Positions 1-13,138 of a stretch of DNA of 64,000 nucleotides are shown piece by piece. Numbering within the stretch: the first letter of the stretch is position 1; each line of letters opens with the position of its first letter. Both the position numbers and the translations under genes were made by a program. The stretch lies in sequence record LC739537.1; one strand, written 5' to 3'. This stretch comes from Escherichia phage phiWec188. Below the pieces are notes generated by a model. The model made no database searches. It was not told the DNA's origin and saw nothing but the letters and a program-made list of their open reading frames with translations.

Positions 1-423
1 GTGAAATACATGATTGTTCCGCGTGTAGCTAAAGTGGGGGCTGTTCGAGATGATGTGGTTGCTCCGGTATATGCACCTAAACCACGTTATCGCAAGACTC
101 GCCAAAAACCTCCTGTAGGCAAGAAGCCAGTTGTGCGTATTCTCTACACCACACAACAAACCTACATGTTTAAGAATGTGGACAGTGTGCAGGTTACAGG
201 CGAGAAAGTGTATATCCAATATGCGCGTAATATTGCAGAAGGTATTGTTGAGTCTGTTGTTTCCGAGATCGACAGCAATCTGCTTCTCGCGGTGGTGATT
301 GAAGAGAATGGACACCGTGATAACTTCTTAGCTAACATCGACGGTTCTTGGGATTACCAAGGTCATGATGGTACTGCCGTTAAAGGTGGTAAGCTGATGG
401 GACGACAGTTCCTTTCTAAATAA
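1..423 (+). CDS. hypothetical protein (possibly 5'-truncated by window edge)
   Basis: ORF in frame from window start; followed by hairpin plus T-run; no recognisable motifs. Confidence 0.4.
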   Translation: MKYMIVPRVAKVGAVRDDVVAPVYAPKPRYRKTRQKPPVGKKPVVRILYTTQQTYMFKNVDSVQVTGEKVYIQYARNIAEGIVESVVSEIDSNLLLAVVIEENGHRDNFLANIDGSWDYQGHDGTAVKGGKLMGRQFLSK

Positions 424-428
424 TGCAT

Positions 429-455
429 AGGGCGCTCTCTGCGCCCTTTTTCTTT
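429..455 (+). terminator. intrinsic terminator-like hairpin (AGGGCGC-tctct-GCGCCCT + TTTTCTTT)
   Basis: perfect 7-bp GC-rich inverted repeat followed by T-run directly after stop codon at 421-423. Confidence 0.5.
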
Positions 456-464
456 GGAGGTGAT

Positions 465-656
465 ATGGTTACGTATTTTGCAGTGAAAAACGAAGTAGGA
501 ACGGCTGGGAAGCTGATTATGGACAGCGATCGAGACACTCGTGAGGTTATTTGTACCCTGATTGATATTTTACAAAGAAAAGAGTTGCTTTCTGATCGAG
601 ATATTGCTAATCTACTTGGCATCGGCGGTGACGAACTTCAACGACTGCCATTCTAA
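465..656 (+). CDS. small protein with helix-turn-helix-like C-terminal segment
   Basis: GGAGG RBS 6 nt upstream of ATG 465; C-terminal LSDRDIANLLGIGGDEL resembles HTH; longer 423 start lacks RBS and overlaps terminator. Confidence 0.45.
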   Translation: MVTYFAVKNEVGTAGKLIMDSDRDTREVICTLIDILQRKELLSDRDIANLLGIGGDELQRLPF

Positions 657-668
657 AGGAGACTAACA

Positions 669-1271
669 ATGCAACAACTGATCGTTAATATGCCTCGCAC
701 TGGTAATGAAGTTTTTGGTGTACCAGTAGACAAAGTTTGGAAAGCACACTTTCATCTGACCTTAGCCGAGGTAAGTAGTGAAGAGCTTATGCGAGCAGCA
801 AAGATTATCGGTGCAAAATGCACAACTATCGATCTACATCGTGACACGCAATCACAACGCGATCGTATGTTAACTAAGTATCAGGGTGGCATTGACACAG
901 GCTTGATGTTGGAATGTGTGGCAAAGTTAAAAGCTGCTGGCTTCAAAGTGTTACGCTATAAACTGGAACAAATGTTCAAGGATGTAGAACATGTAATGCA
1001 GATGAACCTAAGCAAAGAGCACTACGGAGAGGTACACATCAAGACTCCTGCTTCTATGCCGGAGATTGACACTGGCTTCTTCCGTATCTCTTCTAATGCA
1101 GAAGAGGTGGATTATCGTTTCTATAATGCCCGTCTGTATACCGAAGAAGATAAGTTGCAGTTCAAGAAAGCTTATGATATGCTTCTGACAAATGGTGTTG
1201 AAATAAAGGGCTACCATGTAGAACAAGTGGTAGTAGACAGTAATCTTAACTTAGACGCATGGTGGGCTTAA
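669..1271 (+). CDS. hypothetical protein (weak 2H-phosphoesterase-like H-x-T-x motif)
   Basis: AAGGAG RBS; single HLTL motif near N-terminus; second motif not found, so family assignment unsupported. Confidence 0.5.
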   Translation: MQQLIVNMPRTGNEVFGVPVDKVWKAHFHLTLAEVSSEELMRAAKIIGAKCTTIDLHRDTQSQRDRMLTKYQGGIDTGLMLECVAKLKAAGFKVLRYKLEQMFKDVEHVMQMNLSKEHYGEVHIKTPASMPEIDTGFFRISSNAEEVDYRFYNARLYTEEDKLQFKKAYDMLLTNGVEIKGYHVEQVVVDSNLNLDAWWA

Positions 1272-1272
1272 T

Positions 1273-1929
1273 ATGACTATTAAACATATCTCTTTTGATG
1301 TATGGAACACACTGATCACAGCAAACCCAAATTACGCGGATATGCGAGCTTGGACTATCGCAAAATACGGAGATATTTCGGAAGTAGAAGCAAGAGCAGC
1401 TTACAAGAAGATCAAAAAGGAACTGGATAATGCGGCACTTCAGGGAACAGCCGAGTGTGCAGCATATGCCTGGGAAAGACTTGGTTACGAACTTGGGATA
1501 ACACCTTTGAAGTCTGCAAAGCTTCGTTTCGAGTGTGAACAGTGGTTCCTTAAGTTTCCACCACATGTGGCTGTGGATTTACCGATGCACTTGCTGTATC
1601 TTTCGGGGCGTTATGATTTGAGCATCAAGAGTAATACCAACTTCATATCAGGGGATATCCTGCGCCGGGCTTGTAAGTTTGATGGTTGGAATTGTTTTGA
1701 GTTCACCCATTTCTCGGATGAAGCTTTACTTTGTAAACCAGATCCGCGATTCTTTGCTCGCACGCTGACGTATTCTCCCATCCCTTTGTTAGGGCACGAA
1801 GTATTGCACGTAGGCGATAGTGAAGAATATGATGGAAAATGTGTTGACTTAGGATTTAACTTCTGTCATATTAAGAACCCTAACGACTTGTTAGATAAAC
1901 TTGCTAAAGGAGAACTTGTTAATGCGTAA
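1273..1929 (+). CDS. HAD-superfamily-like hydrolase (putative)
   Basis: N-terminal FDVWNTL (degenerate HAD motif I) and C-terminal GDSEEYD (motif IV-like); translationally coupled to neighbours. Confidence 0.45.
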   Translation: MTIKHISFDVWNTLITANPNYADMRAWTIAKYGDISEVEARAAYKKIKKELDNAALQGTAECAAYAWERLGYELGITPLKSAKLRFECEQWFLKFPPHVAVDLPMHLLYLSGRYDLSIKSNTNFISGDILRRACKFDGWNCFEFTHFSDEALLCKPDPRFFARTLTYSPIPLLGHEVLHVGDSEEYDGKCVDLGFNFCHIKNPNDLLDKLAKGELVNA

Positions 1930-2749
1930 TCAAACTCAAATCTTTGCTCACAAATTTGATAGTCTGGAAACTGCTCGTTTTGATATTCGTGACTATTCCA
2001 AACTGAAGTTTGGCAGCAACCAGGCGGCACGCCGTATGGGGCAAACATTGGCAGTCTCTTTCTATGACTTGGTAGTCAAGAATATGCCGGAAGAAGAGTT
2101 TGTGGTGATTCCTTCACCTTACAACCATGTGCATAACGCAGCAACCATGATGACCAACCAGTTCATCAATTTCTTGAACCTGTTGCTGCTGAATCACAAA
2201 GGTAGTCGTGCAGTAGAGTTGGATACGATTCACCGTAAGGTAAGCTACATTAACGATTATGGTTTCCTGGACAAAGCAAGCCGTAAGAAACTGATTGATG
2301 GGGACACATTCTATTGCAACAAAGATTTTTGGGGCAACAAGAAGCTGATCTTCATTGATGATGTGAACATCACGGGGACTCATGAAGATAAACTGATTGA
2401 GATCCTGGATGAAAATAAAGTTACGAACGATGTTTACTTCCTGTACTTTGCCAAGTATACTGGTAATCAAGCAGACACAGAAGCTAAACTGAACTTCAAT
2501 TATATTAACACGACAGATGCTTTCGTTAATATGATCAACACCGAACAAGATGCACAGTGTTTGGTTCGTCCTATCAAGTATCTGATGGGGCAAGCACCGG
2601 AAGAGTTTAAAATCATTCTCTCCCGTCTGCCACACCGTTATGTAGAAGCACTGTTCTTTGGGTGTCTTGGGGAAGGTTATGACAAGATCGAGAAGTATTC
2701 TGAAAACTTCGTCTTCCTGAACCGTTACTTTAACCAACATATCCTGTAA
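1922..2749 (+). CDS. phosphoribosyltransferase (PRTase) domain protein
   Basis: PRPP-binding signature KLIFIDDVNITGTHEDKL; start moved to ATG 1922 preceded by AAGGAGAA RBS. Confidence 0.5.
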   Translation: MRNQTQIFAHKFDSLETARFDIRDYSKLKFGSNQAARRMGQTLAVSFYDLVVKNMPEEEFVVIPSPYNHVHNAATMMTNQFINFLNLLLLNHKGSRAVELDTIHRKVSYINDYGFLDKASRKKLIDGDTFYCNKDFWGNKKLIFIDDVNITGTHEDKLIEILDENKVTNDVYFLYFAKYTGNQADTEAKLNFNYINTTDAFVNMINTEQDAQCLVRPIKYLMGQAPEEFKIILSRLPHRYVEALFFGCLGEGYDKIEKYSENFVFLNRYFNQHIL

Positions 2750-2758
2750 GGAGGGAAA

Positions 2759-3232
2759 ATGTTGAAGGTTGTTACTGGTAATCTGATCGATGCAGCTAAG
2801 AGCGGGGAAGTGAACGTTATAGCCCACTGTTGTAACTGCATGTGTAATATGGGTAAAGGGATTGCTCCACAGATTAAAAAAGCATTTCCTTATGCATATG
2901 CAGCCGACTTGGACACAGCAGCAGGTGATCAAAGTAAACTGGGTTCTTTTAGTTTAGGGGTGCCAGAGAATTCCTCTGATCCTTTGGTGTATAACCTGTA
3001 CGGACAGTATCGTTACGGGTACAACGCTAAAGGTCGTCAGTTGGACTACGATGCTCTTTATGACGCACTGATAGCTATGGCTAATGATTTGCTCCTCCAG
3101 GCAAAAGGGCTTAAAATTGGTCTGCCTATGATCGGAGCAGGTTTTGCGGGAGGTAATTGGGCTATCATCGAAGTGATGATTGAAGAAACTTTAGTAAAAA
3201 CAGGTCACGATGTGACTATTTATAAACTTTAA
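2759..3232 (+). CDS. macro domain protein (ADP-ribose binding/processing)
   Basis: VNVIAHCCNCMCNMGKGIAPQI and IGLPMIGAGFAGG match the two conserved macro-domain glycine-rich loops; AAGGAGGG RBS. Confidence 0.65.
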   Translation: MLKVVTGNLIDAAKSGEVNVIAHCCNCMCNMGKGIAPQIKKAFPYAYAADLDTAAGDQSKLGSFSLGVPENSSDPLVYNLYGQYRYGYNAKGRQLDYDALYDALIAMANDLLLQAKGLKIGLPMIGAGFAGGNWAIIEVMIEETLVKTGHDVTIYKL

Positions 3233-3245
3233 GAGGAGAAATAAT

Positions 3246-3467
3246 ATGGGTGTTGTTGCAGGTGTTCTGGCAGTAGTTATCGTGTTTGTTCTGGCTTTCC
3301 TGATCAGTATGATTCCAGCATGGCTTCTGCTGCTGGCTTATAACTACGTTGTTGAAATGATGGGTCACACAGATATCACTGTTCCTATCACCTTCTGGAC
3401 TGTGGTGTGTGTGGCATTTATCATGGCTGTACTACGTGGGATCTTTTCCTCAAGTTCTTCAAAATAA
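3246..3467 (+). CDS. small hydrophobic membrane protein
   Basis: 73 aa, two predicted transmembrane stretches; AGAGGAGAA RBS. Confidence 0.5.
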   Translation: MGVVAGVLAVVIVFVLAFLISMIPAWLLLLAYNYVVEMMGHTDITVPITFWTVVCVAFIMAVLRGIFSSSSSK

Positions 3468-3470
3468 GTG

Positions 3471-3498
3471 TTGACAAAGTTTTAGAATAGAGTAAGAT
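3471..3498 (+). promoter_or_regulatory. sigma70-like promoter candidate (TTGACA -35, TAAGAT -10, 16-nt spacer) upstream of terC
   Basis: consensus -35 hexamer; -10 is 4/6; located in the only sizeable intergenic gap in this region. Confidence 0.4.
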
Positions 3499-3548
3499 GT
3501 ATCACATGAGGCGGGGAGTGGTTCCCCGCAAAGAGAAAGGAGAAAATA

Positions 3549-4523
3549 ATGCAACTTGGTTTCCCCATTATTGATGTAGTGGTGTTGGTAGGTATTCTTG
3601 TTCTGTCCATCGGTATTGACTTTTTCGGGCATCGTGAGAACAAGGAAATCTCTTTCAAATCTGCTGTGGCTTGGTCAATCTTCTGGATTGGTGTGTCTTT
3701 AGCCTACTATGGTTTTGTATACTTCCAGCACGGCGCAGATTTTGCAAACTTGTTCTTGAGCGGGTATGTGTTAGAGAAGTCGCTCTCGGTAGATAACTTG
3801 GTAGTGTTTGTAGCAGTGTTCTCCAGTTTCGGGATTAAGAGCACACACTTACAACACAAAATTCTACTCTGGGGTATTGCAGGTGCGATTGTCTTCCGAG
3901 GTGTGTTTGTAGCAGCAGGGACTTATCTGCTAAGTATTGGATGGTATGTTAATATTTTCTTCGGTATTGTGATTCTTTTTTGTGCGGCGAAGATGTTGTT
4001 TAAACAAGACGATGACGCAGCAGTTGATTACTCTAAACATTGGGCTACCCGCGTCGTTCGTAAACTGTTCCCAGTATCGGATCAGATGGATGGTGAGAAG
4101 TTCTTCACGATTAAGAATGGTGTTCGTGTAGCAACTCCGGCTCTGGTTTGTGTGTTCGTGATGGAAATGGTAGATGTGATCTTTGCAGTAGACTCGGTTC
4201 CGGCTGTAATTGCAGTGACACAAGAACCACTGCTTGTATTCTCTTCGATGCTCTGTGCAATCTTAGGCTTACGTGCTCTGTTCTTTGTTCTTAGTGTGGC
4301 CCTGAAGTATCTGGTTCACCTGGAGAAAGCAGTTATCGCAGTCCTGGTGTTTGTTGGTGTGAAACTGATGTATCACCCGTTTGCAGAAACGCTGCACGCA
4401 AAAGTGAGCTTCCTGCCAGCGCATATTGACCCGACGATCAGCATGTATATCGTGCTTGGTACTCTGGCCCTGGGCGTGATTGCAAGTTTCATCTTCCCTG
4501 AAAAAGAAGAAGCTACCGCTTAA
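3549..4523 (+). CDS. terC: TerC-family integral membrane protein
   Basis: multi-pass hydrophobic protein with the TerC signature EKSLSVDNLVVFVAVF; RBS AAAGGAGAA. Confidence 0.8.
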   Translation: MQLGFPIIDVVVLVGILVLSIGIDFFGHRENKEISFKSAVAWSIFWIGVSLAYYGFVYFQHGADFANLFLSGYVLEKSLSVDNLVVFVAVFSSFGIKSTHLQHKILLWGIAGAIVFRGVFVAAGTYLLSIGWYVNIFFGIVILFCAAKMLFKQDDDAAVDYSKHWATRVVRKLFPVSDQMDGEKFFTIKNGVRVATPALVCVFVMEMVDVIFAVDSVPAVIAVTQEPLLVFSSMLCAILGLRALFFVLSVALKYLVHLEKAVIAVLVFVGVKLMYHPFAETLHAKVSFLPAHIDPTISMYIVLGTLALGVIASFIFPEKEEATA

Positions 4524-4531
4524 TACCAATG

Positions 4532-4556
4532 AACCTCCTTCGGGAGGTTTCTTACT
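4532..4556 (+). terminator. intrinsic terminator (AACCTCC-TTCG-GGAGGTT + T-rich tail)
   Basis: perfect 7-bp stem with UUCG tetraloop immediately after terC stop. Confidence 0.6.
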
Positions 4557-4571
4557 AATATAGGAGGAATT

Positions 4572-4922
4572 ATGTCTGTATATTTTGATGATGTTCAGGA
4601 ATATGTTTGGTGTCTTTCTGGCACAATCCAAGAGGTAGAAGCTGCGATTCAAGAGGTTTTTCCTTATGCTTATGTAGAAGTTAAACAGACACCTCCTATG
4701 GATCTTCCACCTAATGTTGAAGCTTGTTGTGGTTCAGGTGAGGGTACAGTCACCCCAGTTCTGCGTTACGAACTACAAGCAGCAAGTGCAAATGTCGATG
4801 ATATTATTACAGAAATTAAGGTGTATGGTTTCTGGACCTCTCCTTACGCTAAATGGGATAACTCTGACACTTGGGATTTATTCTTCTGGGATAATGAGAC
4901 AGATGATGAGGTATTTCTGTAA
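4572..4922 (+). CDS. hypothetical protein
   Basis: TAGGAGG RBS; acidic, Trp-rich C-terminus; no recognised motif. Confidence 0.5.
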   Translation: MSVYFDDVQEYVWCLSGTIQEVEAAIQEVFPYAYVEVKQTPPMDLPPNVEACCGSGEGTVTPVLRYELQAASANVDDIITEIKVYGFWTSPYAKWDNSDTWDLFFWDNETDDEVFL

Positions 4923-5164
4923 TGAAAGTTGTTTGGGTTGTGTTTGAAAATATTTGTTTTGCAATAGGTTTGTTCGTCATACTTTTTGTGTTGACAAACG
5001 TGATCAATGGTAGTAAAGTATCCCTATACAAAGACGGGGAGCAGATTTACTGCTTCTCTGGAGATTTCAAACACACCTGTGTTAATATGCAGAAAGAAGA
5101 AACTCCACACCAGAAGTCAAGAGAAGATTTTGATTGGTGGTCACTACTTAATAACTTAAGATGA
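4922..5164 (+). CDS. small membrane protein
   Basis: start overlaps upstream stop; N-terminal transmembrane segment. Confidence 0.45.
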   Translation: MKVVWVVFENICFAIGLFVILFVLTNVINGSKVSLYKDGEQIYCFSGDFKHTCVNMQKEETPHQKSREDFDWWSLLNNLR

Positions 5165-5173
5165 GGAGAAAAT

Positions 5174-6040
5174 ATGAAAAATATTCAGCCATTACCTGTA
5201 GTTGGGGATTTGTATTTCTTATCTGGTACGGGTTATTCCCCAGAAGCATTAGAAGTTAACAAGAACGTCTTCCGAGTGAAAGAAATAAGAGAAGAATGTA
5301 ATGAAATTGTTTTCGAAGGTATTACTAACGGAGTTCTTCAGTATGCAGAGATGCGTAGCTGCTTCCAGCAACCTTTCCGCCCGTTGGCAGACGAGTATAA
5401 GATTGCGGTAAATATTGACGATCTTAAAAAATCTCCTTTGTTTGAAGGGTTCTCTGCTTTTATGGCAGATACTTATGTGGATGTAAAGAGATCTAACCTT
5501 TTCGCAGGGGATAATTTCCCTCACTTTGTAGCAGAGAAAAGTCATGGTTTTTCCGATTATGTGGATGCTGTAAACTATGATGTTTCTGAATTGACAGAAG
5601 AGCAGGATTATCTCCTGTTATCTCCTAAAGATTTCATGAGCGTAATGTATGCCGTAGCTGAACAGAAAAAGAAGAAAGAAGAACCTGTAGCCAAAGTTAA
5701 AAAGGTTAAAGGTAAACGTGCCAAAGGTATTCCAGAACGTAAGCGCACCGTAAATAAGGCGACAGTTTTCTTTACCAGCGGTGAGCAATATACGATCAAA
5801 GGTTTTAAAGAAGTGGGTTACACTGCTGGCGGAAACCTTATGTTCTTCACAGTTGCAGAAGAAGGAGAAACTTTTATCCGTTTTTCCAATATGTGGGAAA
5901 TGTCTGTAGAAGATATTAAAAGTGTTGTTGTTTTAGGTGTACATAAGAGTTTCATTATTAACCAAATCTCTGATTTCAGTGCACACTTGACAGCACCAGA
6001 TTTCGAAACTACCACAACAAGCTTTAACTTCAAGGTGTAA
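5174..6040 (+). CDS. hypothetical protein with lysine-rich central linker
   Basis: GAGGAGAA RBS; KKKKEEPVAKVKKVKGKRAKG basic stretch. Confidence 0.5.
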   Translation: MKNIQPLPVVGDLYFLSGTGYSPEALEVNKNVFRVKEIREECNEIVFEGITNGVLQYAEMRSCFQQPFRPLADEYKIAVNIDDLKKSPLFEGFSAFMADTYVDVKRSNLFAGDNFPHFVAEKSHGFSDYVDAVNYDVSELTEEQDYLLLSPKDFMSVMYAVAEQKKKKEEPVAKVKKVKGKRAKGIPERKRTVNKATVFFTSGEQYTIKGFKEVGYTAGGNLMFFTVAEEGETFIRFSNMWEMSVEDIKSVVVLGVHKSFIINQISDFSAHLTAPDFETTTTSFNFKV

Positions 6041-6043
6041 TGC

Positions 6044-6634
6044 ATGAATACCGAGAGAGATTTAAAACTCTTGTGGTGGGAAGTGATGCAGGAGATCAAG
6101 GAGGATTTCCCTGTTTACTACAACATGCTACGTGAAGCTGGATATACGGCTTGCGTTAGGAACAAAGTGAATAACTCTTTCGGTTGGTGCAACTACCGAG
6201 AAAAGATTGTTGTTGTGAATTGGCACTTGCATAAAAACTCCACAAGGGATATGATAGTGGACACAATGAAGCATGAAATTGCTCATGCTATTGATGGTTG
6301 TATGGGTAAGTTCAGTCGTCATGGACCACACTGGCAAAAACTGGCAGCAGAGTTGGGAGCCAATCCTAAAGCTACTTCCAAAGAACCGTTCAATCATGAA
6401 TACAAATATGTTCTTGTTTTGGTAGACAGATTTGCCACAAGATGTGTTAGAGGGTATAATCGTAAACCTAACCGTATGACCCCAGGGAAACAACCACATA
6501 TTTGGTTGAAGAGTGATAAAGAGGGGACAGAAGGAAAAATATGGTTGTATAAATGGGAAGATTGGGTTAAAGTAGCTAAAGAATATGGTGTTTCACCTTA
6601 CACAAGAGAAATAGAAGAGGAGAATGAAGAATGA
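6044..6634 (+). CDS. SprT-like zinc metallopeptidase domain protein
   Basis: HEIAHAI (HExxH) preceded by hydrophobic beta-strand region typical of SprT/Wss1-like fold. Confidence 0.55.
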   Translation: MNTERDLKLLWWEVMQEIKEDFPVYYNMLREAGYTACVRNKVNNSFGWCNYREKIVVVNWHLHKNSTRDMIVDTMKHEIAHAIDGCMGKFSRHGPHWQKLAAELGANPKATSKEPFNHEYKYVLVLVDRFATRCVRGYNRKPNRMTPGKQPHIWLKSDKEGTEGKIWLYKWEDWVKVAKEYGVSPYTREIEEENEE

Positions 6635-7743
6635 CAAGTCCATTTTTGAAAGCGGCAACTGGTGGTCAAAAGAAATCTGAAACGAGTGTACTGACTGCTA
6701 CTACAGACGCAAGCAAGTCCGTGTTCGCTCCGAGTGTCCTGGATGCAAGTCCGGTGTATGCTCCAGCAGCGCCAAAAGCTGTGCCTACCCTGCCAACAAT
6801 GTCTCGTAAAGAGATTGAAGAAGTAGGTGCAGAAGCAGGTTTAACTCTCCGTTCTCTGAATGCTGAAGTGCTGAAGCACCAACGTAGCAATCAAGGTGAC
6901 GAAATGAGTCAACGCCTTACAGCTTTGATTAAACAAGCCAAACAGCTTGATCCTGCCTCCATTAAGCAGAGTAAAGGTGTAGGTAAACTCATCAAGAAAC
7001 TGATGGGGATGAAAGAAGATCTCTTCGGTGAGTTCGATAACGTGAACAACCGTATCGAAGAACTCGTTAAGAATCTTCAAATGGATATCCGTAAAGAAGA
7101 AGATTCTCTGGTGTACCTGGATAAGCTGCACCAGGCGATCGGACAGTACGCCGCAAGCCTGAATCGTGATATGGAATTACTCACAGCAGCTTATGAGCAA
7201 GAACTGGCTACTTTTGAAGCCACACCAGAAGATGACGTAGAAGCCCGTCAACGCGTCCGTGACACGCTTGATCTCTTGGAGATACGTATTGCTGACTTGA
7301 AGGCATTACGCTTGCTGTGCGTGCAAATGGGACCGCGTGTATTGGGTATGCAGAAAGTATCTGCCAGCCTCATGCGTTCTGCTCGTAATATTGTGAACAA
7401 TGTGATTCCTGCTTACTCGGCAAACTTCTCAATGTATATTGAAAGTCTGCGCCAGAAGAAAGCAGCAGAAACACAGAACAACGTTCTGGACGAGTTCAAC
7501 CTGGCAATCAAACTGGGTAGCGATCTTGCCACACAGAATCAGATCGAAGCAGCAGCACTGGCTAACCGCCAAGTACTGGATATTGAAACCCTGCGTCACG
7601 ATCAGGAAAACTTGGTTAAGATGTTGGAAGAAACTAACCGCATCAATACGGAAGCCCGTGCTGCCCGTGTTGATTACATCAATGAAGTTCAATCTCTCGA
7701 AGATGGGATGGTTGACGCTGTTAAGAAGGGGCTTGGTAAATGA
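6631..7743 (+). CDS. alpha-helical protein, possible TelA-like (toxic anion resistance family)
   Basis: 370 aa, predicted helical/coiled-coil, size and context (adjacent to TerC/TerD genes) fit TelA; no diagnostic motif verified. Confidence 0.35.
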   Translation: MTSPFLKAATGGQKKSETSVLTATTDASKSVFAPSVLDASPVYAPAAPKAVPTLPTMSRKEIEEVGAEAGLTLRSLNAEVLKHQRSNQGDEMSQRLTALIKQAKQLDPASIKQSKGVGKLIKKLMGMKEDLFGEFDNVNNRIEELVKNLQMDIRKEEDSLVYLDKLHQAIGQYAASLNRDMELLTAAYEQELATFEATPEDDVEARQRVRDTLDLLEIRIADLKALRLLCVQMGPRVLGMQKVSASLMRSARNIVNNVIPAYSANFSMYIESLRQKKAAETQNNVLDEFNLAIKLGSDLATQNQIEAAALANRQVLDIETLRHDQENLVKMLEETNRINTEARAARVDYINEVQSLEDGMVDAVKKGLGK

Positions 7744-7934
7744 GAATCCGTGTCTATGTAGTTGAAGATTATTTTGGTGTACGCTATGACGAGGAACGTC
7801 GATTCGCACCTATGTGCAGCGTATATTCTCCAAGCGTCTTAGCAAGTTTACGGAAAGATTATTCTTATGAAGCTTGTAATAGTTTTGGTTTTGAGATTCT
7901 TTCAGACGTAGAATTTAATGAGGAGGAAGAATGA
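7740..7934 (+). CDS. hypothetical small protein
   Basis: overlapping start/stop coupling. Confidence 0.35.
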   Translation: MRIRVYVVEDYFGVRYDEERRFAPMCSVYSPSVLASLRKDYSYEACNSFGFEILSDVEFNEEEE

Positions 7935-8104
7935 AAACATTGCGTGTGAACATCGAAACTGCCTGGGCTGGATGTACCGAGGTTGTGGATATCGAAATTG
8001 AAGACGATATGTCTCAAGAAGATATCGAAGATCTTGCAAAAGAAACATTTCAGGATTATTGTAATTACGGGTTCCATATTTTAGGGGAGGAAGAAGATGA
8101 TTAA
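7931..8104 (+). CDS. hypothetical small acidic protein (57 aa, below ORF-track cutoff)
   Basis: GAGGAGGAAGA RBS then ATG 7931; translated by hand. Confidence 0.35.
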   Translation: MKTLRVNIETAWAGCTEVVDIEIEDDMSQEDIEDLAKETFQDYCNYGFHILGEEEDD

Positions 8105-8495
8105 CCACACAAACGTACATTTGAAATTAACGGTAACAGATCCGACTCTTTTCATCAATCTCACAAGCGGTGAAATTTACGAAGTTATCACAGACGAGGA
8201 TGGTTCTTGCTTCCTTAAAGGTTATTATCTCTGTGAATCTGATGAGTTGGTATCTATTATCACCTTGGGAGAATACGAAGAACCAGGTTTCCGTGTAGAG
8301 GTTGTTAAGAATCCTGATATTATCCAATTAACTCGACAAGAACTGATCACCATCATGGAAGATGCTTTTATCGATGGGTGGAAGACTCAAAACTATGATT
8401 GGAGTGGTCCAGAAGACTTCCTGCGTCTTCATAAAGAATATGACGAGTGTAGTGAGACTACTCTTGCCATTGATGATATTAAGGCAGGTCTGTAA
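8097..8495 (+). CDS. hypothetical protein
   Basis: coupled ORF. Confidence 0.45.
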   Translation: MINHTNVHLKLTVTDPTLFINLTSGEIYEVITDEDGSCFLKGYYLCESDELVSIITLGEYEEPGFRVEVVKNPDIIQLTRQELITIMEDAFIDGWKTQNYDWSGPEDFLRLHKEYDECSETTLAIDDIKAGL

Positions 8496-9064
8496 TGGGT
8501 TGCTTTAGTTTTCTGTGTAAGGAGTCGGGCAAAGCTGCCCTCTCCACATCTTTCGATGGTTCTCCTTGCTATCTTTTCCTGTTGAAAGATGGGAAGGTTA
8601 TTGAAGAGATGTATGGCAACTATGATAGTTATGGACGTGTCTTCAGCAGTAAGCAGGATGCTCACGGGAACAGAGAAAGCTTTAAATGGACTATGCCTTG
8701 GAGCGACGTTTGTGATCTTATGTTCTCTGTAAACCGTGGAGACGGTATTGCTATGGTTTTAGCAGAACACTTTACAGGAGAAGTCCCTACAAAGCGATCC
8801 GAGGACGATCCTAATCAAGGTTGGGGAGATGGAGAAGAAGAGGAAGAAGAGGATTATTTCTACAGTACCGAAAATAATATTTTCAAACGTGTTGACAATC
8901 CTTATCATAAAGTGCATAATGTCCTCATTGAAACAGAAGACGACAAAATGGGAATTGAAGAAGATGATCCTCTTGTAACACTGCCTACAAGCGAGTTACA
9001 AAAAATCATCAAAGAAGCTTACGATTTGGGCTTCAAAACTGGTAAAGGAGGAGGGAATGTTTGA
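8495..9064 (+). CDS. hypothetical protein with poly-Glu linker
   Basis: coupled ORF; GDGEEEEEED acidic tract. Confidence 0.45.
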   Translation: MGCFSFLCKESGKAALSTSFDGSPCYLFLLKDGKVIEEMYGNYDSYGRVFSSKQDAHGNRESFKWTMPWSDVCDLMFSVNRGDGIAMVLAEHFTGEVPTKRSEDDPNQGWGDGEEEEEEDYFYSTENNIFKRVDNPYHKVHNVLIETEDDKMGIEEDDPLVTLPTSELQKIIKEAYDLGFKTGKGGGNV

Positions 9065-9329
9065 TTTTAAAATAAAAGATTCAAAACCCCAAGATGTAGC
9101 ACTTCGTTTCGAAGAGTTGGGGATTGGTGAAACTTTCATGTATTATTCAGCATATGAAGAAAATGGTTTGGATACGTTTGCAAACTTAGTATTTATTAAA
9201 AGCGGCGGCGCGACTGCTGTTTGTTTGAATAGTTCATCAAGAGGGAGTGTCCATACCGTATCCCCAGATGTACCGATGGTTGCAGTTCGTTTAGTAGTTA
9301 CCGATATCACACTTACAGAGGAGAAATAA
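9057..9329 (+). CDS. hypothetical protein, paralog A (pairs with 10351-10632)
   Basis: shares KDSKP...SAYEENGLD motif with the 10351-10632 product; each precedes a TerD-type gene. Confidence 0.5.
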   Translation: MFDFKIKDSKPQDVALRFEELGIGETFMYYSAYEENGLDTFANLVFIKSGGATAVCLNSSSRGSVHTVSPDVPMVAVRLVVTDITLTEEK

Positions 9330-9330
9330 T

Positions 9331-10131
9331 ATGTCCAATAAAATTAGCCTGAAGAAACGCCAAGACACCCTGACCATTTCACTGAAGAAAAAGAAAATCG
9401 TCAACGAAGATCAAAAGATCGTTCTGCGTGTTGCAAGCGCACTGGATATCTCCGGTAGTATGTCCAGCTTGTATCGTAACGGCACCGTCAGTGATTTCGT
9501 AGGTAAGCTGCTGCCCTTCGGTATGATCTTTGACGATAATGCACAGATCGATATGTGGGCTTTCAACAATAGCTCTCGTGAAATCACTCCGGCAACTGCT
9601 GATGTGTATGATGATTACGTTGGTAAATGCATTAATGGTCGTGTAACAGTTCAGGGTGGTACAAGCTACGCCCCTGTTATGCAAGATATCTACGATTCTT
9701 ACTTCGGTAGCACTACCAAGTATGAAACTGTAGAAACTCAAGTAACGAAAGAAATCCCTAAGAAAGGTTTCTTCAACCGTCTGTTGGGTAAAACTGAAAC
9801 TGTAGAAGCTGTTGTAGAAAAAACTGTAGCCGTTGCTGTGCCTGGTGTAGACGTTACTCCGGCAGTTGTGTTCTTCCAGACAGATGGTGAGAACGATGAT
9901 CCGAGCCGTGTACTCTCCGTACTGGAAAAGAACAAGGGTAAACCTATCTACTGGTTCATGGTGGGTGTTGGTAGTGCTCGTTTCTCTTTCCTGAAAGATT
10001 TGGCTGAAGCTTACGACAACGTAGCATTCATTGGTCTGAACGATCTTTCCTTGACAGACGAGCAGCTTTACGATAAACTCTTGTCTGAAGAGTTCGGTGA
10101 GTGGGTCGAAAAGGTTGGTGCTAAGAAATGA
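9331..10131 (+). CDS. vWA domain protein with TerD-like N-terminal leader (TerY/TerF-like)
   Basis: N-terminal ISLKK repeats as in TerD; MIDAS-type DISGSM, GGTSYAP, FFQTDGENDD, MVGVG motifs of a von Willebrand A domain. Confidence 0.65.
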   Translation: MSNKISLKKRQDTLTISLKKKKIVNEDQKIVLRVASALDISGSMSSLYRNGTVSDFVGKLLPFGMIFDDNAQIDMWAFNNSSREITPATADVYDDYVGKCINGRVTVQGGTSYAPVMQDIYDSYFGSTTKYETVETQVTKEIPKKGFFNRLLGKTETVEAVVEKTVAVAVPGVDVTPAVVFFQTDGENDDPSRVLSVLEKNKGKPIYWFMVGVGSARFSFLKDLAEAYDNVAFIGLNDLSLTDEQLYDKLLSEEFGEWVEKVGAKK

Positions 10132-10370
10132 TCGATACGCTGATCTCTCAAACGGTGTTACAAGTGATGCGCGAGAGAGAAGCTTTCATCATGAAGGGTC
10201 TTAAAGATTACTTTGGGACTCTTTCTTTGGAAGAACTCAAGCTACGCGTTGAGATCCATCAGTATCCTTTTTATGAAGAATGGATTGACAAAGCAAATAA
10301 AGCTGTTATAATGCGTATCAACAAACCAGAAATCACGACAGGAGGACAAGATGTTAAATTTCGCTATTAA
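10128..10370 (+). CDS. hypothetical small protein
   Basis: coupled ORF. Confidence 0.4.
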   Translation: MIDTLISQTVLQVMREREAFIMKGLKDYFGTLSLEELKLRVEIHQYPFYEEWIDKANKAVIMRINKPEITTGGQDVKFRY

Positions 10371-10632
10371 GAAAGATAGCAAACCAGAGATTCAGACTTG
10401 TCGCATTGCAAATCTTACACATCGGGATTTGTTTGTTCTGAAAAGCGCCTACGATGAAGACGGTCTTGACCCAGAAGCAGTCATCGTTTATATGGTATTG
10501 CGGCGAGACGAAGACACCAAGCACCCATACAATGCGGTAGAAATGAATTACAATGCAATGTTGTGTTCAATACACCATACGGCAGAGTTGGTGCAGGTAG
10601 AGTTAACAGTTAACGAAATTAAACTTAAATAA
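10351..10632 (+). CDS. hypothetical protein, paralog B (pairs with 9057-9329)
   Basis: see paralog A. Confidence 0.5.
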   Translation: MLNFAIKKDSKPEIQTCRIANLTHRDLFVLKSAYDEDGLDPEAVIVYMVLRRDEDTKHPYNAVEMNYNAMLCSIHHTAELVQVELTVNEIKLK

Positions 10633-10647
10633 TAGAGGAGACATATA

Positions 10648-11250
10648 ATGAGCGATAAAATTTCCCTGAAAAAAGGTTCCACTGACAAGATTTCCCTGAA
10701 GAAAGTTGCTCCGGCACTGAAAGAACTGCGTCTGGAGTTCTCCTGGAAATCAAACTCTAAACTGGATTTGGATGTAAGCGCACTTGTATGCCGACACAAC
10801 GCTTCTGGCAACCCTGAAATGCTGTCTGCACGTCATCTGGTTTGTTATGCTAACAAGTTTGATCCAGAACGTTCTGTATTCGCAGGTGATGATGTTCGTG
10901 ATGGTACTGGTCAAATGGAACAGATTGATGTAACCTTAGCTAAGATCTCCGATAAAGCCGAAGAGATTGCTTTTGTCCTGACTATTGATGATGAAACGGG
11001 CCAGAAACGTCTGGGCCATGCTACTGAAGGTATGCTGAAGATTTTTGATGCCGAGCGTAACGTTGAGATCCTGGACTTCGACTTCCTGGCTCCTGAAGTA
11101 GCTGGTAACACGATCTGCCACGTAGCTTCCTTGGTTCGTGAAGACGGTGAATGGAAACTGAAAGCTTACGGTGTTGGTAAAGCAGGTATGGATATCTGTG
11201 ATGTGGTTATGGCCTTCGGTGGTCAGAAAGAATGGTATGATTGCCCGTAA
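10648..11250 (+). CDS. terD: TerD-family protein
   Basis: ISLKKG..ISLKKVAP, DLDVSAL, GDDVRDGTG, FVLTIDD and GEWKLKAYG motifs line up with E. coli TerD. Confidence 0.85.
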   Translation: MSDKISLKKGSTDKISLKKVAPALKELRLEFSWKSNSKLDLDVSALVCRHNASGNPEMLSARHLVCYANKFDPERSVFAGDDVRDGTGQMEQIDVTLAKISDKAEEIAFVLTIDDETGQKRLGHATEGMLKIFDAERNVEILDFDFLAPEVAGNTICHVASLVREDGEWKLKAYGVGKAGMDICDVVMAFGGQKEWYDCP

Positions 11251-11270
11251 GATTTAACTGAAATGTTGTT

Positions 11271-11286
11271 GGGGGAGAAATCCCCC
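11271..11286 (+). other. GC hairpin with GNRA loop (GGGGGA-GAAA-TCCCCC) after terD
   Basis: perfect 6-bp stem; no U-run, so possibly RNA processing/attenuation site rather than terminator. Confidence 0.35.
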
Positions 11287-11287
11287 A

Positions 11288-11316
11288 TTGCAAAAACGCC
11301 TCTCATGTGTTATACT
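11288..11316 (+). promoter_or_regulatory. sigma70 promoter candidate with extended -10 (TTGCAA -35, 17-nt spacer, TGtTATACT)
   Basis: TG dinucleotide one base upstream of TATACT; good spacing; upstream of hydrolase gene. Confidence 0.5.
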
Positions 11317-11347
11317 GGTAGTTCATTCACCCAAAAGGAGGCAAAAT

Positions 11348-11869
11348 TTGCTGATAAAAAACTTTGTAACAGTTGCGTTACTATCCTTAACTGCTTTTAC
11401 ATTTACACCTGTCACGGCAACCGCCGAAGCTGCAAACGTAAAGACTGCTAAAGTAGTTCACAAATGTGCAAAGCAAGATACTAAAGAAAATCTCTTAGCT
11501 TGTGCAATTTACGCTGAAAGTCGTAATCAGGGTAAACGTGGAATGTATGCTGTAGGTAACGTAGTATTGAACAGGAAAGGTGATGATTACTTCCCTGACA
11601 ATATTAAAGATATTCTCTTCCAACGGGGACAATTCTCTTACAGGAAGAAGTTTAACGTTACTGAAGCAGAGCGATGGAAAGAAGCTAAAGCTATCGCAAA
11701 ACGACTTATATACCTGGATACAAACTTCCCTACACTTAGAGAAGCCCAGGACATGACAAAAGGTGCGACATTTTTTAAGAAAGTAAAAACCCGTGCACAC
11801 TGGACAAAAGATATGGTCTTAGTGTATCGTTATAAAGAACATCAGTTCTACTCACCGACAAGGAGCTAA
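11348..11869 (+). CDS. SleB-type cell-wall hydrolase with N-terminal signal peptide (endolysin candidate)
   Basis: TTG start 7 nt after AAGGAGG; LIKNFVTVALLSLTAFTFTPVTATAEA signal-like leader; AIYAESRNQ...GMYAVGNVVLNR hydrolase motifs. Confidence 0.6.
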   Translation: MLIKNFVTVALLSLTAFTFTPVTATAEAANVKTAKVVHKCAKQDTKENLLACAIYAESRNQGKRGMYAVGNVVLNRKGDDYFPDNIKDILFQRGQFSYRKKFNVTEAERWKEAKAIAKRLIYLDTNFPTLREAQDMTKGATFFKKVKTRAHWTKDMVLVYRYKEHQFYSPTRS

Positions 11870-11870
11870 T

Positions 11871-12155
11871 ATGCGAGAAGATAATACTGTTGTTGTTGCG
11901 AGCTATCTCGTTATCGGTTTAACCGAAGAAGATGTGTACTACATTCGTAAAGGTTTGGAAGCTTACGCTACCCTCTTCATGGAAGACGAAAGCGATGTTG
12001 ATAAATATTCCGTGGAGTTGCTCAACGACAGTATTTATCCTTGCATAGCTCTTAAAGTAGATGCTGTTCTGTGGGAGCGTTTTGCAAGAAGTCACGATGC
12101 TGTTGAATCTTCAATGGTTATGGCACAAAACAACATTTTAGGAGTGATTCACTAA
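11871..12155 (+). CDS. hypothetical protein
   Basis: coupled ORF. Confidence 0.45.
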   Translation: MREDNTVVVASYLVIGLTEEDVYYIRKGLEAYATLFMEDESDVDKYSVELLNDSIYPCIALKVDAVLWERFARSHDAVESSMVMAQNNILGVIH

Positions 12156-12385
12156 TGGCAGATATCATCGAAGTAAACTTCCGTACTCGGAAGAAAGTAG
12201 AGAAATACACGATACTGAAAAGTGTTTGCGTTGTTTGTTTCAACAGTGTAATCTACGATTCAAGAAAGGGCGAAGACGGTAACGAACCGTATATCGAACT
12301 CTCCAAGAGCAACGGTAGTTGCATTTGTAAAGCTTGTGCTGTTCAGATTAAGGGGGTTGTTGATGAAAACGAATGGGATAAATAA
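12155..12385 (+). CDS. small zinc-ribbon protein
   Basis: CVVC...CICKAC cysteine pairs. Confidence 0.45.
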   Translation: MADIIEVNFRTRKKVEKYTILKSVCVVCFNSVIYDSRKGEDGNEPYIELSKSNGSCICKACAVQIKGVVDENEWDK

Positions 12386-12557
12386 TACAGGGGAACTTTC
12401 TCTTGAGAACGTAACAAACGACAAACTGATTAAAATGCGAGATGTAGCTTTGGATCATCTTCAAGACTCCTTCAAGGAATATATGGAAGCACGGGATCGT
12501 GTGCTTGAGATTCGTCAAGCAATGGTTAAACGCGGAATGGTAGTGGATTCTAAGTAA
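12336..12557 (+). CDS. hypothetical small protein
   Basis: ORF; start uncertain. Confidence 0.35.
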   Translation: MLFRLRGLLMKTNGINNTGELSLENVTNDKLIKMRDVALDHLQDSFKEYMEARDRVLEIRQAMVKRGMVVDSK

Positions 12558-12566
12558 GGGGTTAGT

Positions 12567-13130
12567 ATGATTTATTATATTACCCCTTATCTGACTGGAG
12601 ATATCGGCAAAGCAATTAACGATGCTATTGCCGTTCTTCATGAAGATAGTTGGGTGTGTTTACGTGATACCGACACCATGTTCTTACTGCCAGACCAACC
12701 TTCTATGTTGGAAGATTTGGTAGCAACCAACCCACCGTTCGATGTAATAGGTGCATCCTGTAACCGTTTAGGCAGTAGTTATCAACTCCTCGGCGGAAAG
12801 ATTAATGATGATCCTGACATTCTGAACCATATTTCTCATGCCAAAGTTGCTCGTGATTACTATGGCGATGAAATTGAAGAAGTCCCGCAAGGCACTCCCT
12901 TGGCAGGTTTCTTCCTGTTGTTCAGGAAATCATTATGGAAGGAGATCCCTTTTGAAGAACGTAGCATCCAGTTCGATATAATCTTCTCAAACACTTTACA
13001 TGAACGAGGAAAAAGGTTAGGATTGATGCGTGGGATGTATCTCTTCCACATTTACCGTTTAGGTCAAAAAGATCCTCAACGGGCAATATCACACCTCATG
13101 CACTGTCATGATCACAGGAAAACTATTTAG
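12567..13130 (+). CDS. glycosyltransferase-like protein (putative)
   Basis: LRDTDTMF DxD-like motif in Rossmann-like N-terminal half. Confidence 0.4.
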   Translation: MIYYITPYLTGDIGKAINDAIAVLHEDSWVCLRDTDTMFLLPDQPSMLEDLVATNPPFDVIGASCNRLGSSYQLLGGKINDDPDILNHISHAKVARDYYGDEIEEVPQGTPLAGFFLLFRKSLWKEIPFEERSIQFDIIFSNTLHERGKRLGLMRGMYLFHIYRLGQKDPQRAISHLMHCHDHRKTI

Positions 13131-13138
13131 GGGGAAAG

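Follow-up and report, generated by a model that had tools for sequence, protein, structure and literature searches.

A Ter-type gene block of Escherichia phage phiWec188, best read as a phage form of the Ter membrane-stress system of bacteria

The bacterial Ter stress-response system goes back to a computational definition by Anantharaman, Iyer and Aravind in 2012 (summarised in PMC7824862), and phage Ter systems with a phosphoribosyltransferase (PRTase) and a HAD hydrolase were described by Iyer et al. in 2021 (PMC7824862). Described phage clusters include those of Acinetobacter phage ME3, Caulobacter jumbo phages, Klebsiella phage phiKp34, Pseudomonas phage phiPsa374 and, from the subfamily considered here, phi92 and ZCKP1, all of which are reported to be lytic. 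The ter genes of phi92 were noted in the 2015 annotation of the Intesti cocktail metagenome (PMC4690881) and those of ZCKP1 in 2018 (PMC6141743), and superinfection exclusion has been proposed as a role for phage Ter genes (PMC7824862; PMC6141743). As no experimental study of a phage Ter gene was encountered in the literature, phage Ter function is extrapolated from the bacterial homologues.

Escherichia phage phiWec188 (LC739537.1), of which a stretch of 64,000 nucleotides (the window) was analysed, belongs to the Stephanstirmvirinae and carries such a block, with all listed open reading frames present on the + strand (Table 1). Judged from its sequence, the block is best read as the Ter membrane-stress system of bacteria in a phage-encoded form, with two conserved parts, namely a quartet (TelA, TerF-type vWA, TerC and TerD) and an enzyme pair (HAD hydrolase and PRTase). 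The likeness to the bacterial hub and its PRTase/HAD metabolite module, suggested by the initial annotation, is borne out by the domain calls, as the Pfam/NCBIfam scores of TerC, TelA, the vWA protein, TerD and PRTase_3 far exceed their cut-offs. The same annotation knew of no characterised phage counterpart; the arrangement is not new, being shared by some 130-155 public genomes of the subfamily, phAPEC8 and phi92 among them, and it has been noticed in print, though not characterised. One finding named as speaking against the reading was a block both common in close relatives and with an established, unrelated function; of these two features the first alone was encountered.

Table 1. Features of the block, in positions of the window
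Position	Strand	Feature	Evidence or remark
669..1271	+	Protein, 200 aa, no assigned function	1 base upstream of HAD gene
1273..1929	+	HAD-superfamily hydrolase	First gene of conserved HAD-PRTase pair
1922..2749	+	Ter-type phosphoribosyltransferase (PRTase_3, ComF-like)	PF15610, E 5.3e-41, 141.2 bits
2759..3232	+	Macro domain protein, TARG1/DarG/SCO6735 class, predicted ADP-ribosyl hydrolase	Pfam Macro
3246..3467	+	Small hydrophobic protein, 73 aa, two predicted membrane spans (by eye)	Just 5' of terC promoter
3471..3498	+	Sigma-70-type promoter-like site for terC	TTGACA-16-TAAGAT
3510..3529	+	Hairpin in terC 5' untranslated region	GCGGGGA-loop-TCCCCGC
3549..4523	+	TerC/Alx-family integral membrane protein	Pfam TerC E 1.7e-39, 135.8 bits (cut-off 27.8)
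4532..4549	+	Terminator-like hairpin 3' of terC	UUCG loop, weak T tail
4922..5164	+	Small protein, 80 aa, single hydrophobic segment at N-terminus	Downstream of terC
5174..6040	+	288-aa protein, no assigned function	PHROG families without assigned function
6044..6634	+	SprT-like zinc metalloprotease, HEIAH motif	Pfam SprT-like E 2.3e-9
6631..7743	+	TelA family protein	Pfam TelA E 1.1e-34, 120.5 bits
8495..9064	+	Conserved 189-aa protein, no assigned function	74-79% identity in phi92 and phAPEC8
9057..9329	+	Small protein, paralogue A, 90 aa	Immediately 5' of vWA gene
9331..10131	+	TerF-type vWA protein	PF10138 E 2.5e-37, 129.4 bits
10285..10312	+	Sigma-70 promoter with perfect consensus, ahead of paralogue B and terD	TTGACA-16-TATAAT with TGn
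10351..10632	+	Small protein, paralogue B, 93 aa	Immediately 5' of terD
10648..11250	+	TerD-domain protein, divergent	Pfam TerD E 2.1e-29, 102.8 bits

Within the quartet, the TerC membrane protein also exceeds the cut-off of TIGR03718, the curated model of the TerC/Alx subfamily (320 bits vs. 246.4), and holds both conserved motifs, EKSLSVDN and FAVDSVPA. TelA, initially listed as a mere possibility, gives a clear family match and has 702 relatives at E <= 0.001; its AlphaFold model (pLDDT 70.7) combines a disordered N-terminus with long helices (124-197, 203-276, and 318-369), and a fold search returned unspecific matches. Its start is overlapped by 4 nt by the SprT-like gene, which is limited to the phAPEC8/phiWec group and absent in phi92 and KP13-16. 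The 288-aa protein encoded further upstream has no Pfam match and shows a weak C-terminal resemblance to the small paralogues A and B (BLASTP E 0.01-0.03 to A). The vWA protein has a complete MIDAS motif (DISGS...TDGE) and, as had been noticed, a TerD-like leader of two strands, 14 of its first 20 residues matching TerD; leaders of the same kind occur in the vWA proteins of phiPsa374 and CcrColossus. TerD itself, likewise correctly recognised at the outset, matches the PDB entries 3ibz and 2kxt (E about 1e-14), with an acidic loop that is shortened and less acidic than the canonical one (GDDVRDGTGQME vs. GDNRTGEGDGDDE in Klebsiella TerD). This loop, partly lost in the TerD of the subfamily, is presumably the Ca2+-binding loop.

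The HAD assignment holds through matches to HAD-IA subfamilies in NCBIfam and through conserved motifs, while Pfam Hydrolase scores weakly (22.6 bits, under the 26.4 cut-off). Motif I (FDVWNTL) keeps the nucleophile Asp9, and Ser120, Lys155 and Asp182/187 of motifs II-IV are invariant across three phage lineages; Asp+2, however, the general acid typical of phosphatases, is replaced by Trp, which makes a nucleoside-product step uncertain. The PRTase was identified correctly but given too early a start (1901, an upstream TTG; the deposited start is 1922), and its frame shares 8 nt with the HAD gene. Its PRPP loop (..FIDDVxITGTHE..) and IPSPYN loop do not vary among 11 homologues, and it is preceded by a HAD gene in every locus examined. 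The open reading frame at 669 is confined to the phAPEC8/phiWec group and lies outside the conserved core.

That these genes form a set rather than a chance neighbourhood is upheld by their co-occurrence across unrelated phages, which was judged on organism-level counts and sampled loci and not on a complete record-by-record table. The quartet, with TerC or DUF475, is compact in four unrelated phage lineages, represented by phiPsa374, CcrColossus, Rhizobium phage RHph_TM61 and ME3, where its genes lie side by side on one strand, neighbours being separated by one small open reading frame at most. All six genes are kept, in differing order, in phAPEC8, phi92 and KP13-16 (three Stephanstirmvirinae lineages), and one metagenomic phage contig holds TerC, TerD, vWA, HAD and PRTase_3 inside 7.5 kb. 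The overlapping HAD-PRTase_3 pair recurs in Stephanstirmvirinae, Rhizobium phages and Caulobacter/Brevundimonas phages, and all phage groups found to have it also have TerD, even at distances of 28-90 kb. One could argue that unrelated accessory genes have simply gathered in a variable region, as the Ter genes of the subfamily are mixed with about a dozen unrelated small open reading frames over several transcription units, and as the frame at 669 and the SprT-like gene are group-specific. We consider this highly improbable: the same four or six families are repeatedly associated, in bacteria and in no fewer than four unrelated lineages of phages, and TerD is so rare (about 250 of 50,697 phage records) that repeated chance co-occurrence is very unlikely.

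As to function, we tentatively favour an envelope-protection or superinfection-exclusion device, predicted to be expressed early, on the basis of the phage inhibition, colicin resistance and envelope-stress tolerance reported for plasmid ter operons; moreover, Klebsiella needs TerC to tolerate polymyxin B and cetylpyridinium chloride (PMC9933665). What is observed are the identities of the genes, the conservation of catalytic and metal-binding motifs and of promoters, and joint inheritance across phage lineages; we infer every functional step as follows. Host-type promoters would drive transcription of terC and terD soon after infection, and the quartet would assemble at the inner membrane from TerC as a divalent-cation transporter-like integral membrane protein, TelA as a long-helix protein probably located under the membrane, the vWA protein contributing a metal-dependent binding site, and TerD as a metal-binding beta-sandwich. 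The envelope of the infected cell might thereby be hardened and guarded against DNA injection by a second phage, pore-forming colicins and other envelope insults, and an energised membrane may also protect lysis timing. PRTase_3, translationally coupled with the HAD hydrolase, would convert a base and PRPP to a nucleotide that the latter processes, probably to a nucleoside-like product, and the pair could thus supply a small ligand bound by or tuning the quartet. Against this device stand the absence from the phage set of TerB and the extra TerD paralogues of classical ter operons, the partial loss of the TerD acidic loop, the missing general acid of the HAD hydrolase and the unspecific TelA fold search. 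In those operons, TerB and the extra TerD paralogues are needed for tellurite resistance.

The block had been described as a single early operon, which it is not: several transcription units are present, and terC and terD each have their own promoter. The promoter-like site and terminator-like hairpin reported around terC are both present and conserved in relatives, terC being a monocistronic cassette. The site is identical in phAPEC8, whose record annotates a host-dependent promoter there, and phi92 has TTGACT at the equivalent place; the 5' hairpin reads GCGGAGG/CCTCCGC in phi92, with both sides changed and pairing kept, and compensatory stem changes preserve the 3' hairpin in phAPEC8, phi92 and KP13-16. 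The flanking small proteins are conserved as well (93% in phAPEC8 and 61% in phi92 upstream, 70% and 46% downstream). A different, unlikely reading makes TerC an exporter of Mn2+ (or Ca2+) or a metal chaperone like Alx, MeeF and MeeY, with TerD and vWA as metal-binding accessories, which would tune metal supply to phage enzymes or Sec-exported proteins. The curated model that TerC passes is one of 'metal homeostasis', Alx and the TerC proteins of B. subtilis are Mn exporters that load exoenzymes with metal as these pass through Sec (PMC10197570; PMC10550928), TerD and vWA folds bind metal, a cell-wall hydrolase with a signal-peptide-like N-terminus adjoins terD, and ribonucleotide reductase genes lie just upstream in relatives. 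However, the terC 5' hairpin has no Rfam match and hence no Mn riboswitch is seen, the promoter looks constitutive, Klebsiella TerC was not needed for metal-stress resistance (PMC9933665), and the strict co-inheritance with TelA and the HAD-PRTase pair is left unexplained.

The promoter ahead of terD is the sole perfect consensus promoter within the 64 kb window (0.06 expected); it is also perfect in phAPEC8, where the spacer has diverged, and its phi92 counterpart reads TTGACT-16-TAAAAT. Paralogues A and B share 33% identity over their full length (E 6e-8), B being found in phAPEC8 and absent in phi92, and the 189-aa protein preceding A has no family match in profile searches. Directly 3' of terD follows a SleB-like cell-wall hydrolase (deposited start 11348), whose N-terminus resembles a signal peptide by eye only; it lies within or adjoins the Ter genes in phAPEC8, phi92 and KP13-16 as well. 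This arrangement would suit a quartet that mainly keeps the membrane energised and so prevents premature release or activation of the exported endolysin, an idea we regard as very unlikely, given that the adjacency is not seen in phiPsa374, CcrColossus, RHph_TM61 and ME3; in any case it overlaps with envelope protection rather than excluding it.

The Macro domain assignment stands on a score above the Pfam cut-off (E 2.2e-5; 24.8 bits vs. 22), and the best PDB matches are 5e3b (SCO6735), BT1257, the DarG macrodomain and OARD1. As the gene also occurs in relatives without known ter genes (PVP-SE1, FelixO1 and rV5, cited in the phAPEC8 record note), its membership in the module is less secure than that of the others. 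Host takeover or counter-defence, the use suggested by the initial annotation, would differ from the published proposals, which favour superinfection exclusion. Conceivably, though with rather low probability, the block serves counter-defence, Macro stripping the ADP-ribose marks set by DarT or other host toxins, the PRTase/HAD pair destroying, mimicking or replenishing nucleotide-derived immune signals, and the Ter proteins being separate. The hydrolase class of the Macro protein, Macro genes in the vicinity of Ter genes in ME3 and in phiPsa374 (in the latter next to a gene for a nicotinamide PRTase), and PRTase-type effectors in defence systems, e.g. ShosTA and retron III-A, are consistent with such a role. 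Yet PRTase_3 and HAD track TerD and not Macro across phages, no Macro homologue occurs in the examined stretches of KP13-16, the CcrColossus loci and RHph_TM61, that of ME3 belongs to another family (E 0.009), and DarG models match far under cut-off, with no DarT-type partner present.

Read as a phage-encoded Ter system, the block shares TelA, TerF-type vWA, TerC/DUF475 and TerD with the described phage clusters, including the kind of vWA leader, and the PRTase and HAD with ME3, Caulobacter and Rhizobium phages and other Stephanstirmvirinae. In this subfamily, unlike elsewhere, about a dozen small open reading frames break up the quartet, terC and terD form separate promoter-bearing cassettes, and TerD shows 20-28% identity to that of other phages, with its shortened loop; in the phAPEC8/phiWec group, the protease gene overlapping telA is a further difference. 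With the bacterial Ter system it has in common the hub and the 'nucleoside-like metabolite' module, whose PRTase family is given as PRTase_3 (PF15610), but it has one PRTase only and resides in a lytic phage instead of a chromosome or plasmid; profile searches of the block gave no TerB, ATP-grasp, HpcH/CitE-like enzyme or linked DNA-processing genes. The classical terZABCDEF operon (IncHI2 plasmids, E. coli O157, Klebsiella) likewise has TerC, TerD and a TerF-type vWA, whereas the phage block lacks TerB, TerA, TerZ and TerE paralogues and has TelA, in bacteria part of the separate telAB/kilA system; tellurite resistance is not expected of it, a view also published for phiPsa374. The yceCDEFGH locus of B. 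subtilis encodes MeeF, a TerC protein, together with three paralogues of TerD and with YceH, which is TelA-like. MeeF has Mn efflux and metalation activity (PMC10550928). Like the phage block, this stress-induced, envelope-related locus unites TerD, TerC and TelA; it differs in having neither vWA nor the PRTase/HAD pair, and in its use of stress sigma factors in place of phage-borne promoters.

The block at 669-11250 is 100 % identical in nucleotide comparison to Escherichia phage phiWec190 (LC739539.1), an approximately 150 kb myovirus of the subfamily Stephanstirmvirinae that was assigned to the proposed new genus 'Wecvirus' in a 2025 paper, in which the genes of the block go unmentioned (PMC12695924). 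All ORFs were found where the initial annotation had placed them, and its family assignments are borne out by Pfam scores over the cut-offs for TerC (PF03741, 135.8 bits, E 1.7e-39), TerD (PF02342, 102.8 bits, cut-off 25.3, E 2.1e-29), TelA (PF05816, 120.5 bits, cut-off 30, E 1.1e-34), the vWA protein (PF10138, vWA-TerF-like, 129.4 bits, E 2.5e-37), the phosphoribosyltransferase PRTase_3 (PF15610, 141.2 bits, E 5.3e-41) and, by a slight excess, the Macro protein (E 2.2e-5). The HAD-like hydrolase stays slightly under its Pfam cut-off, but matches to HAD-IA models of NCBIfam, together with conserved HAD motifs, back the assignment. TerC furthermore exceeds the curated TerC/Alx subfamily model TIGR03718 (320 bits, cut-off 246.4), and TerD matches PDB TerD structures at E ~1e-14; the Stephanstirmvirinae TerD is divergent, with an acidic loop that is shorter and less acidic than that of Klebsiella TerD. 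TelA is modelled as a long helical hairpin, for which fold-search matches were unspecific. The MIDAS motif of the vWA protein is complete (both DxSxS and TDG), and the PRTase has a PRPP loop that does not vary among 11 homologues. In the HAD protein, the nucleophile and motifs II-IV are retained and the general acid Asp+2 is replaced by Trp in all three phage lineages examined, which makes the phosphatase assignment less safe than usually assumed. The TerD-like leader ascribed to the vWA protein was also recovered, as a two-strand motif that is a general trait of the phage vWA proteins compared and was probably inherited from the TerD-vWA fusion protein TerF. Co-variation of this leader with the N-terminus of the phage's own TerD was considered and dropped (non-cognate pairs were, by eye, about as similar as cognate ones), and the claim is restricted to the general two-strand hxLxK motif.

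Gene-neighbourhood comparison showed that the same set recurs across phage lineages. The nucleotide block is present in 134 phage records, its TerD in 145, and its PRTase in 156. Within the subfamily, the genes for HAD, PRTase, TerC, TelA, vWA, and TerD are all retained in phAPEC8, phi92, and the distant KP13-16, albeit in differing order. The quartet of TelA, vWA, TerC/DUF475, and TerD is furthermore compact (same strand, adjacent genes separated by no more than one small ORF) in four unrelated lineages, namely those of the Pseudomonas phage phiPsa374, the Caulobacter phage CcrColossus, the Rhizobium phage RHph_TM61, and the Acinetobacter phage ME3. In every locus examined, the HAD gene precedes and overlaps that of PRTase_3; the groups that have this pair (Stephanstirmvirinae, Rhizobium phages, and Caulobacter/Brevundimonas phages) each carry TerD as well, even at a distance of 28 or 90 kb, and a metagenomic phage contig holds TerC, TerD, vWA, HAD, and PRTase_3 inside 7.5 kb. 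Could these be unrelated genes that are merely juxtaposed? Co-occurrence was judged by organism-level counts and sampled loci, and TerD is found in only ~250 of 50,697 phage records; given this rarity, its repeated pairing with HAD-PRTase_3 argues for a functional link. Among the coliphages carrying the block, several near-identical genomes stand out by their names, namely 'Pseudomonas phage PsgM04F' (95 % identical to this block), 'Acinetobacter phage ABPW7', and five records of 'Campylobacter phage'; the odd labels may reflect mislabelled hosts or contaminant phages.

Elsewhere (RHph_TM61 1-12000 and metagenomic phage contigs), the HAD-PRTase_3 pair lies amid nucleotide-metabolism genes, including an adenylosuccinate synthetase homologue, NMN adenylyltransferase/Nudix, a metallophosphatase, and a 5'-nucleotidase-like gene, neighbours that may point to a role in nucleotide salvage or modification. 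A rival explanation is counter-defence chemistry centred on Macro and PRTase. By its sequence, the Macro protein is a member of the TARG1/DarG/SCO6735 class of ADP-ribosyl hydrolases, and it is a looser associate of the Ter genes: the phiPsa374 quartet has a homologue of 42 % identity at a distance of ~3 kb, and the ME3 cluster is flanked by a macro gene of a different family, while the loci examined in KP13-16 and in the Caulobacter and Rhizobium phages have none. Equivalence to DarG was rejected, as NF048014, with its cut-off of 250, gave 38.8 bits and aligned in the macrodomain part alone; DarTG requires a full-length DarG beside DarT, and the Macro gene has no DarT-like neighbour.

While the parallel with bacterial Ter systems drawn by the initial annotation holds, its claims to novelty and to a single operon do not. 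As to novelty, besides the 134 records with the same block, ter genes have been noted in print, and the arrangement is already known at a descriptive level. TerD, TelA, TerC, PRTase, and hydrolase are already labelled in the phi92 record (2012), whose ter genes appear in the list of a 2015 metagenome study. The paper on ZCKP1 (2018, same subfamily) describes 'four genes related to tellurite resistance' and suggests protection from colicins and superinfection; ter genes of phiKp34 and phiPsa374 have likewise been described. Iyer et al. (2021) covered Ter systems of phages, counting PRTase and HAD genes for 'signal biosynthesis' among their components, named 'related smaller tailed phages', and proposed a role in competition with superinfecting phages. 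The literature search returned no experiments on any phage Ter gene.

As to the operon, terC and terD each carry a promoter of their own, and the block, as judged from its promoter-like sites, would comprise more than one transcription unit. The promoter-like site and a terminator-like hairpin expected around terC are both present. The perfect sigma-70 consensus is the only one in the 64 kb window (0.06 expected); its phAPEC8 counterpart is likewise perfect with a differing spacer, and phi92 has a good sigma-70 match preceding terD. The host-type promoters suggest early expression. Between 4572 and 11250, neighbouring ORFs either overlap or stand no more than 15 nt apart. Promoter density was discarded as a sign of an early region (25 sites versus 25.1 in the shuffled expectation), and the promoter evidence is confined to individually conserved sites. 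The terC cassette (3455-4523) is a mosaic: the 100 nt 5' to the start codon are identical in phAPEC8, and the protein shares 93 % identity with phi92 and 72 % with phAPEC8, which suggests a recombination junction at the terC start.

Genes and putative regulatory features in and beside the block
Feature	Position	Strand	Remark
Tandem ferredoxin-like ORF (modelled)	669-1271	+	
HAD	1273-1929	+	
PRTase_3	1922-2749	+	
Macro	2759-3232	+	
Sigma-70-type promoter, terC	3471-3498	+	Conserved in relatives
terC 5' leader hairpin	~50-nt leader	+	Simple hairpin; conserved; compensatory changes keep pairing
terC	3549-4523	+	
Terminator-like hairpin after terC	4532-4549	+	Conserved; compensatory changes keep pairing
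288-aa ORF	5174-6040	+	
SprT-like zinc protease	6044-6634	+	HEIAH motif
telA	6631-7743	+	
Small paralogue	9057-9329	+	
vWA	9331-10131	+	
Perfect sigma-70 consensus	10285-10312	+	38 nt 5' of small ORF preceding terD
Small paralogue	10351-10632	+	
terD	10648-11250	+	
Hairpin	~11273-11288		Precedes promoter-like site of the SleB-like gene
Promoter-like site, SleB-like gene	11288-11316		
SleB-like cell-wall hydrolase	11288-11869		Deposited start 11348

The first ORF is predicted from its model to be a tandem ferredoxin-like protein; a 2H phosphoesterase was considered and rejected, since a 2H fold with two HxT/S motifs was not found. Among the Stephanstirmvirinae loci compared, this ORF and the SprT-like gene are restricted to the phAPEC8/phiWec group. 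The latter runs 4 nt into the telA start, an overlap that suggests translational coupling. The two small paralogues (33 % identity, E 6e-8) each sit immediately 5' of a gene whose product bears an 'ISLKK' leader (vWA and TerD, respectively), which looks like a duplicated two-gene unit, and the C-terminus of the 288-aa ORF weakly resembles them; family searches with all three gave no match. Relaxed thresholds likewise yielded no credible remote family match for the ten unassigned small ORFs.

Replication and nucleotide-metabolism genes share the strand of the block. In relatives, record annotation places helicase/ribonucleotide reductase genes on one side and endolysin, four glycosyltransferases, primase, and DNA polymerase on the other. 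The anaerobic ribonucleotide reductase genes nrdD and nrdG lie immediately upstream in phAPEC8 and ESCO37; the corresponding phiWec190 region (window 1-660) is arranged otherwise and encodes a 500-aa hypothetical protein (comparison loci L001 1-3000 versus L005 9000-14000). Downstream, glycosyltransferase-like genes follow in series (window 12567-14756 and beyond; four are annotated in phAPEC8), which the ZCKP1 authors suggested to alter the cell surface against superinfection. If they are right, the phage would possess, next to its Ter genes, another exclusion device that works independently.

Also in phAPEC8, phi92, and KP13-16, the SleB-like gene (Pfam Hydrolase_2, E 4.6e-17) adjoins the Ter genes, here directly at terD. 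From its deposited start, the product has a signal-peptide-like N-terminus and would thus be an exported endolysin. This adjoining, exported-looking cell-wall hydrolase speaks for another rival, in which the Ter genes guard the timing of lysis. The function we tentatively propose, by analogy, is a device for envelope protection and superinfection exclusion, plausible yet somewhat short of probable, with the membrane quartet as its core, which the product of the enzyme pair would tune. We base this proposal on the co-inheritance of the genes, on the inhibition of phages and the resistance to colicins that plasmid ter clusters are reported to confer, and on the requirement of Klebsiella TerC for tolerance of envelope-acting agents. 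Rather improbable in its complete form is a more specific version, in which all six conserved genes constitute one two-part device: the HAD-PRTase pair would make a nucleoside-like ligand, a TerD/vWA/TelA assembly on TerC would read it, and the inner membrane of the infected cell would switch to a state in which incoming phage DNA and pore-forming toxins are kept out and lysis stays on time.

Ter genes have a wide distribution among bacteria, plasmids, and phages, with ties to pathogen fitness. The value of this phage group for solving Ter function lies in a small, genetically tractable lytic coliphage with a pared-down six-gene set, a convenient testing ground with a host range that includes E. 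coli K-12-type hosts, probably non-essential genes, and likely simple read-outs (superinfection exclusion, colicin sensitivity, membrane potential, lysis timing, and metabolomics). Should the two-part device be true, the phage would be the first system for solving the Ter mechanism and the identity of the predicted metabolite. For phage therapy, genome screens flag ter genes as 'resistance' genes; from the gene content of the phage set, which lacks TerB and extra TerD paralogues, tellurite resistance would not be expected.

Among known systems, the riboswitch-controlled Alx/TerC manganese exporter bears on a further rival, metal handling by an Alx-like exporter: TerC belongs to the TerC/Alx subfamily, but a yybP-ykoY riboswitch was not found (Rfam models gave no match with E <= 1 over window 1-12500). 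The TerY-P defence system combines a vWA protein with a PP2C phosphatase and a Ser/Thr kinase; here, the vWA protein gave no PADLOC match and the block no kinase or PP2C match. Classical terZABCDEF comprises seven genes, among them those for TerB and multiple TerD paralogues (TerZ, A, D, E, F), whereas the block lacks TerB and has a single TerD and a single vWA protein, in which a two-strand remnant is all that is left of TerD. The parallel that holds is with the bacterial Ter stress-response system. TerB, ATP-grasp, and HpcH/CitE-like proteins of its fuller versions are not among the 22 ORFs at 423-11869, but TerD, the integral membrane protein TerC, TelA, and a TerF/TerY-type vWA protein with MIDAS are all shared with the block, as is the Ter-linked PRTase with its adjacent HAD, a pair conserved across three lineages.
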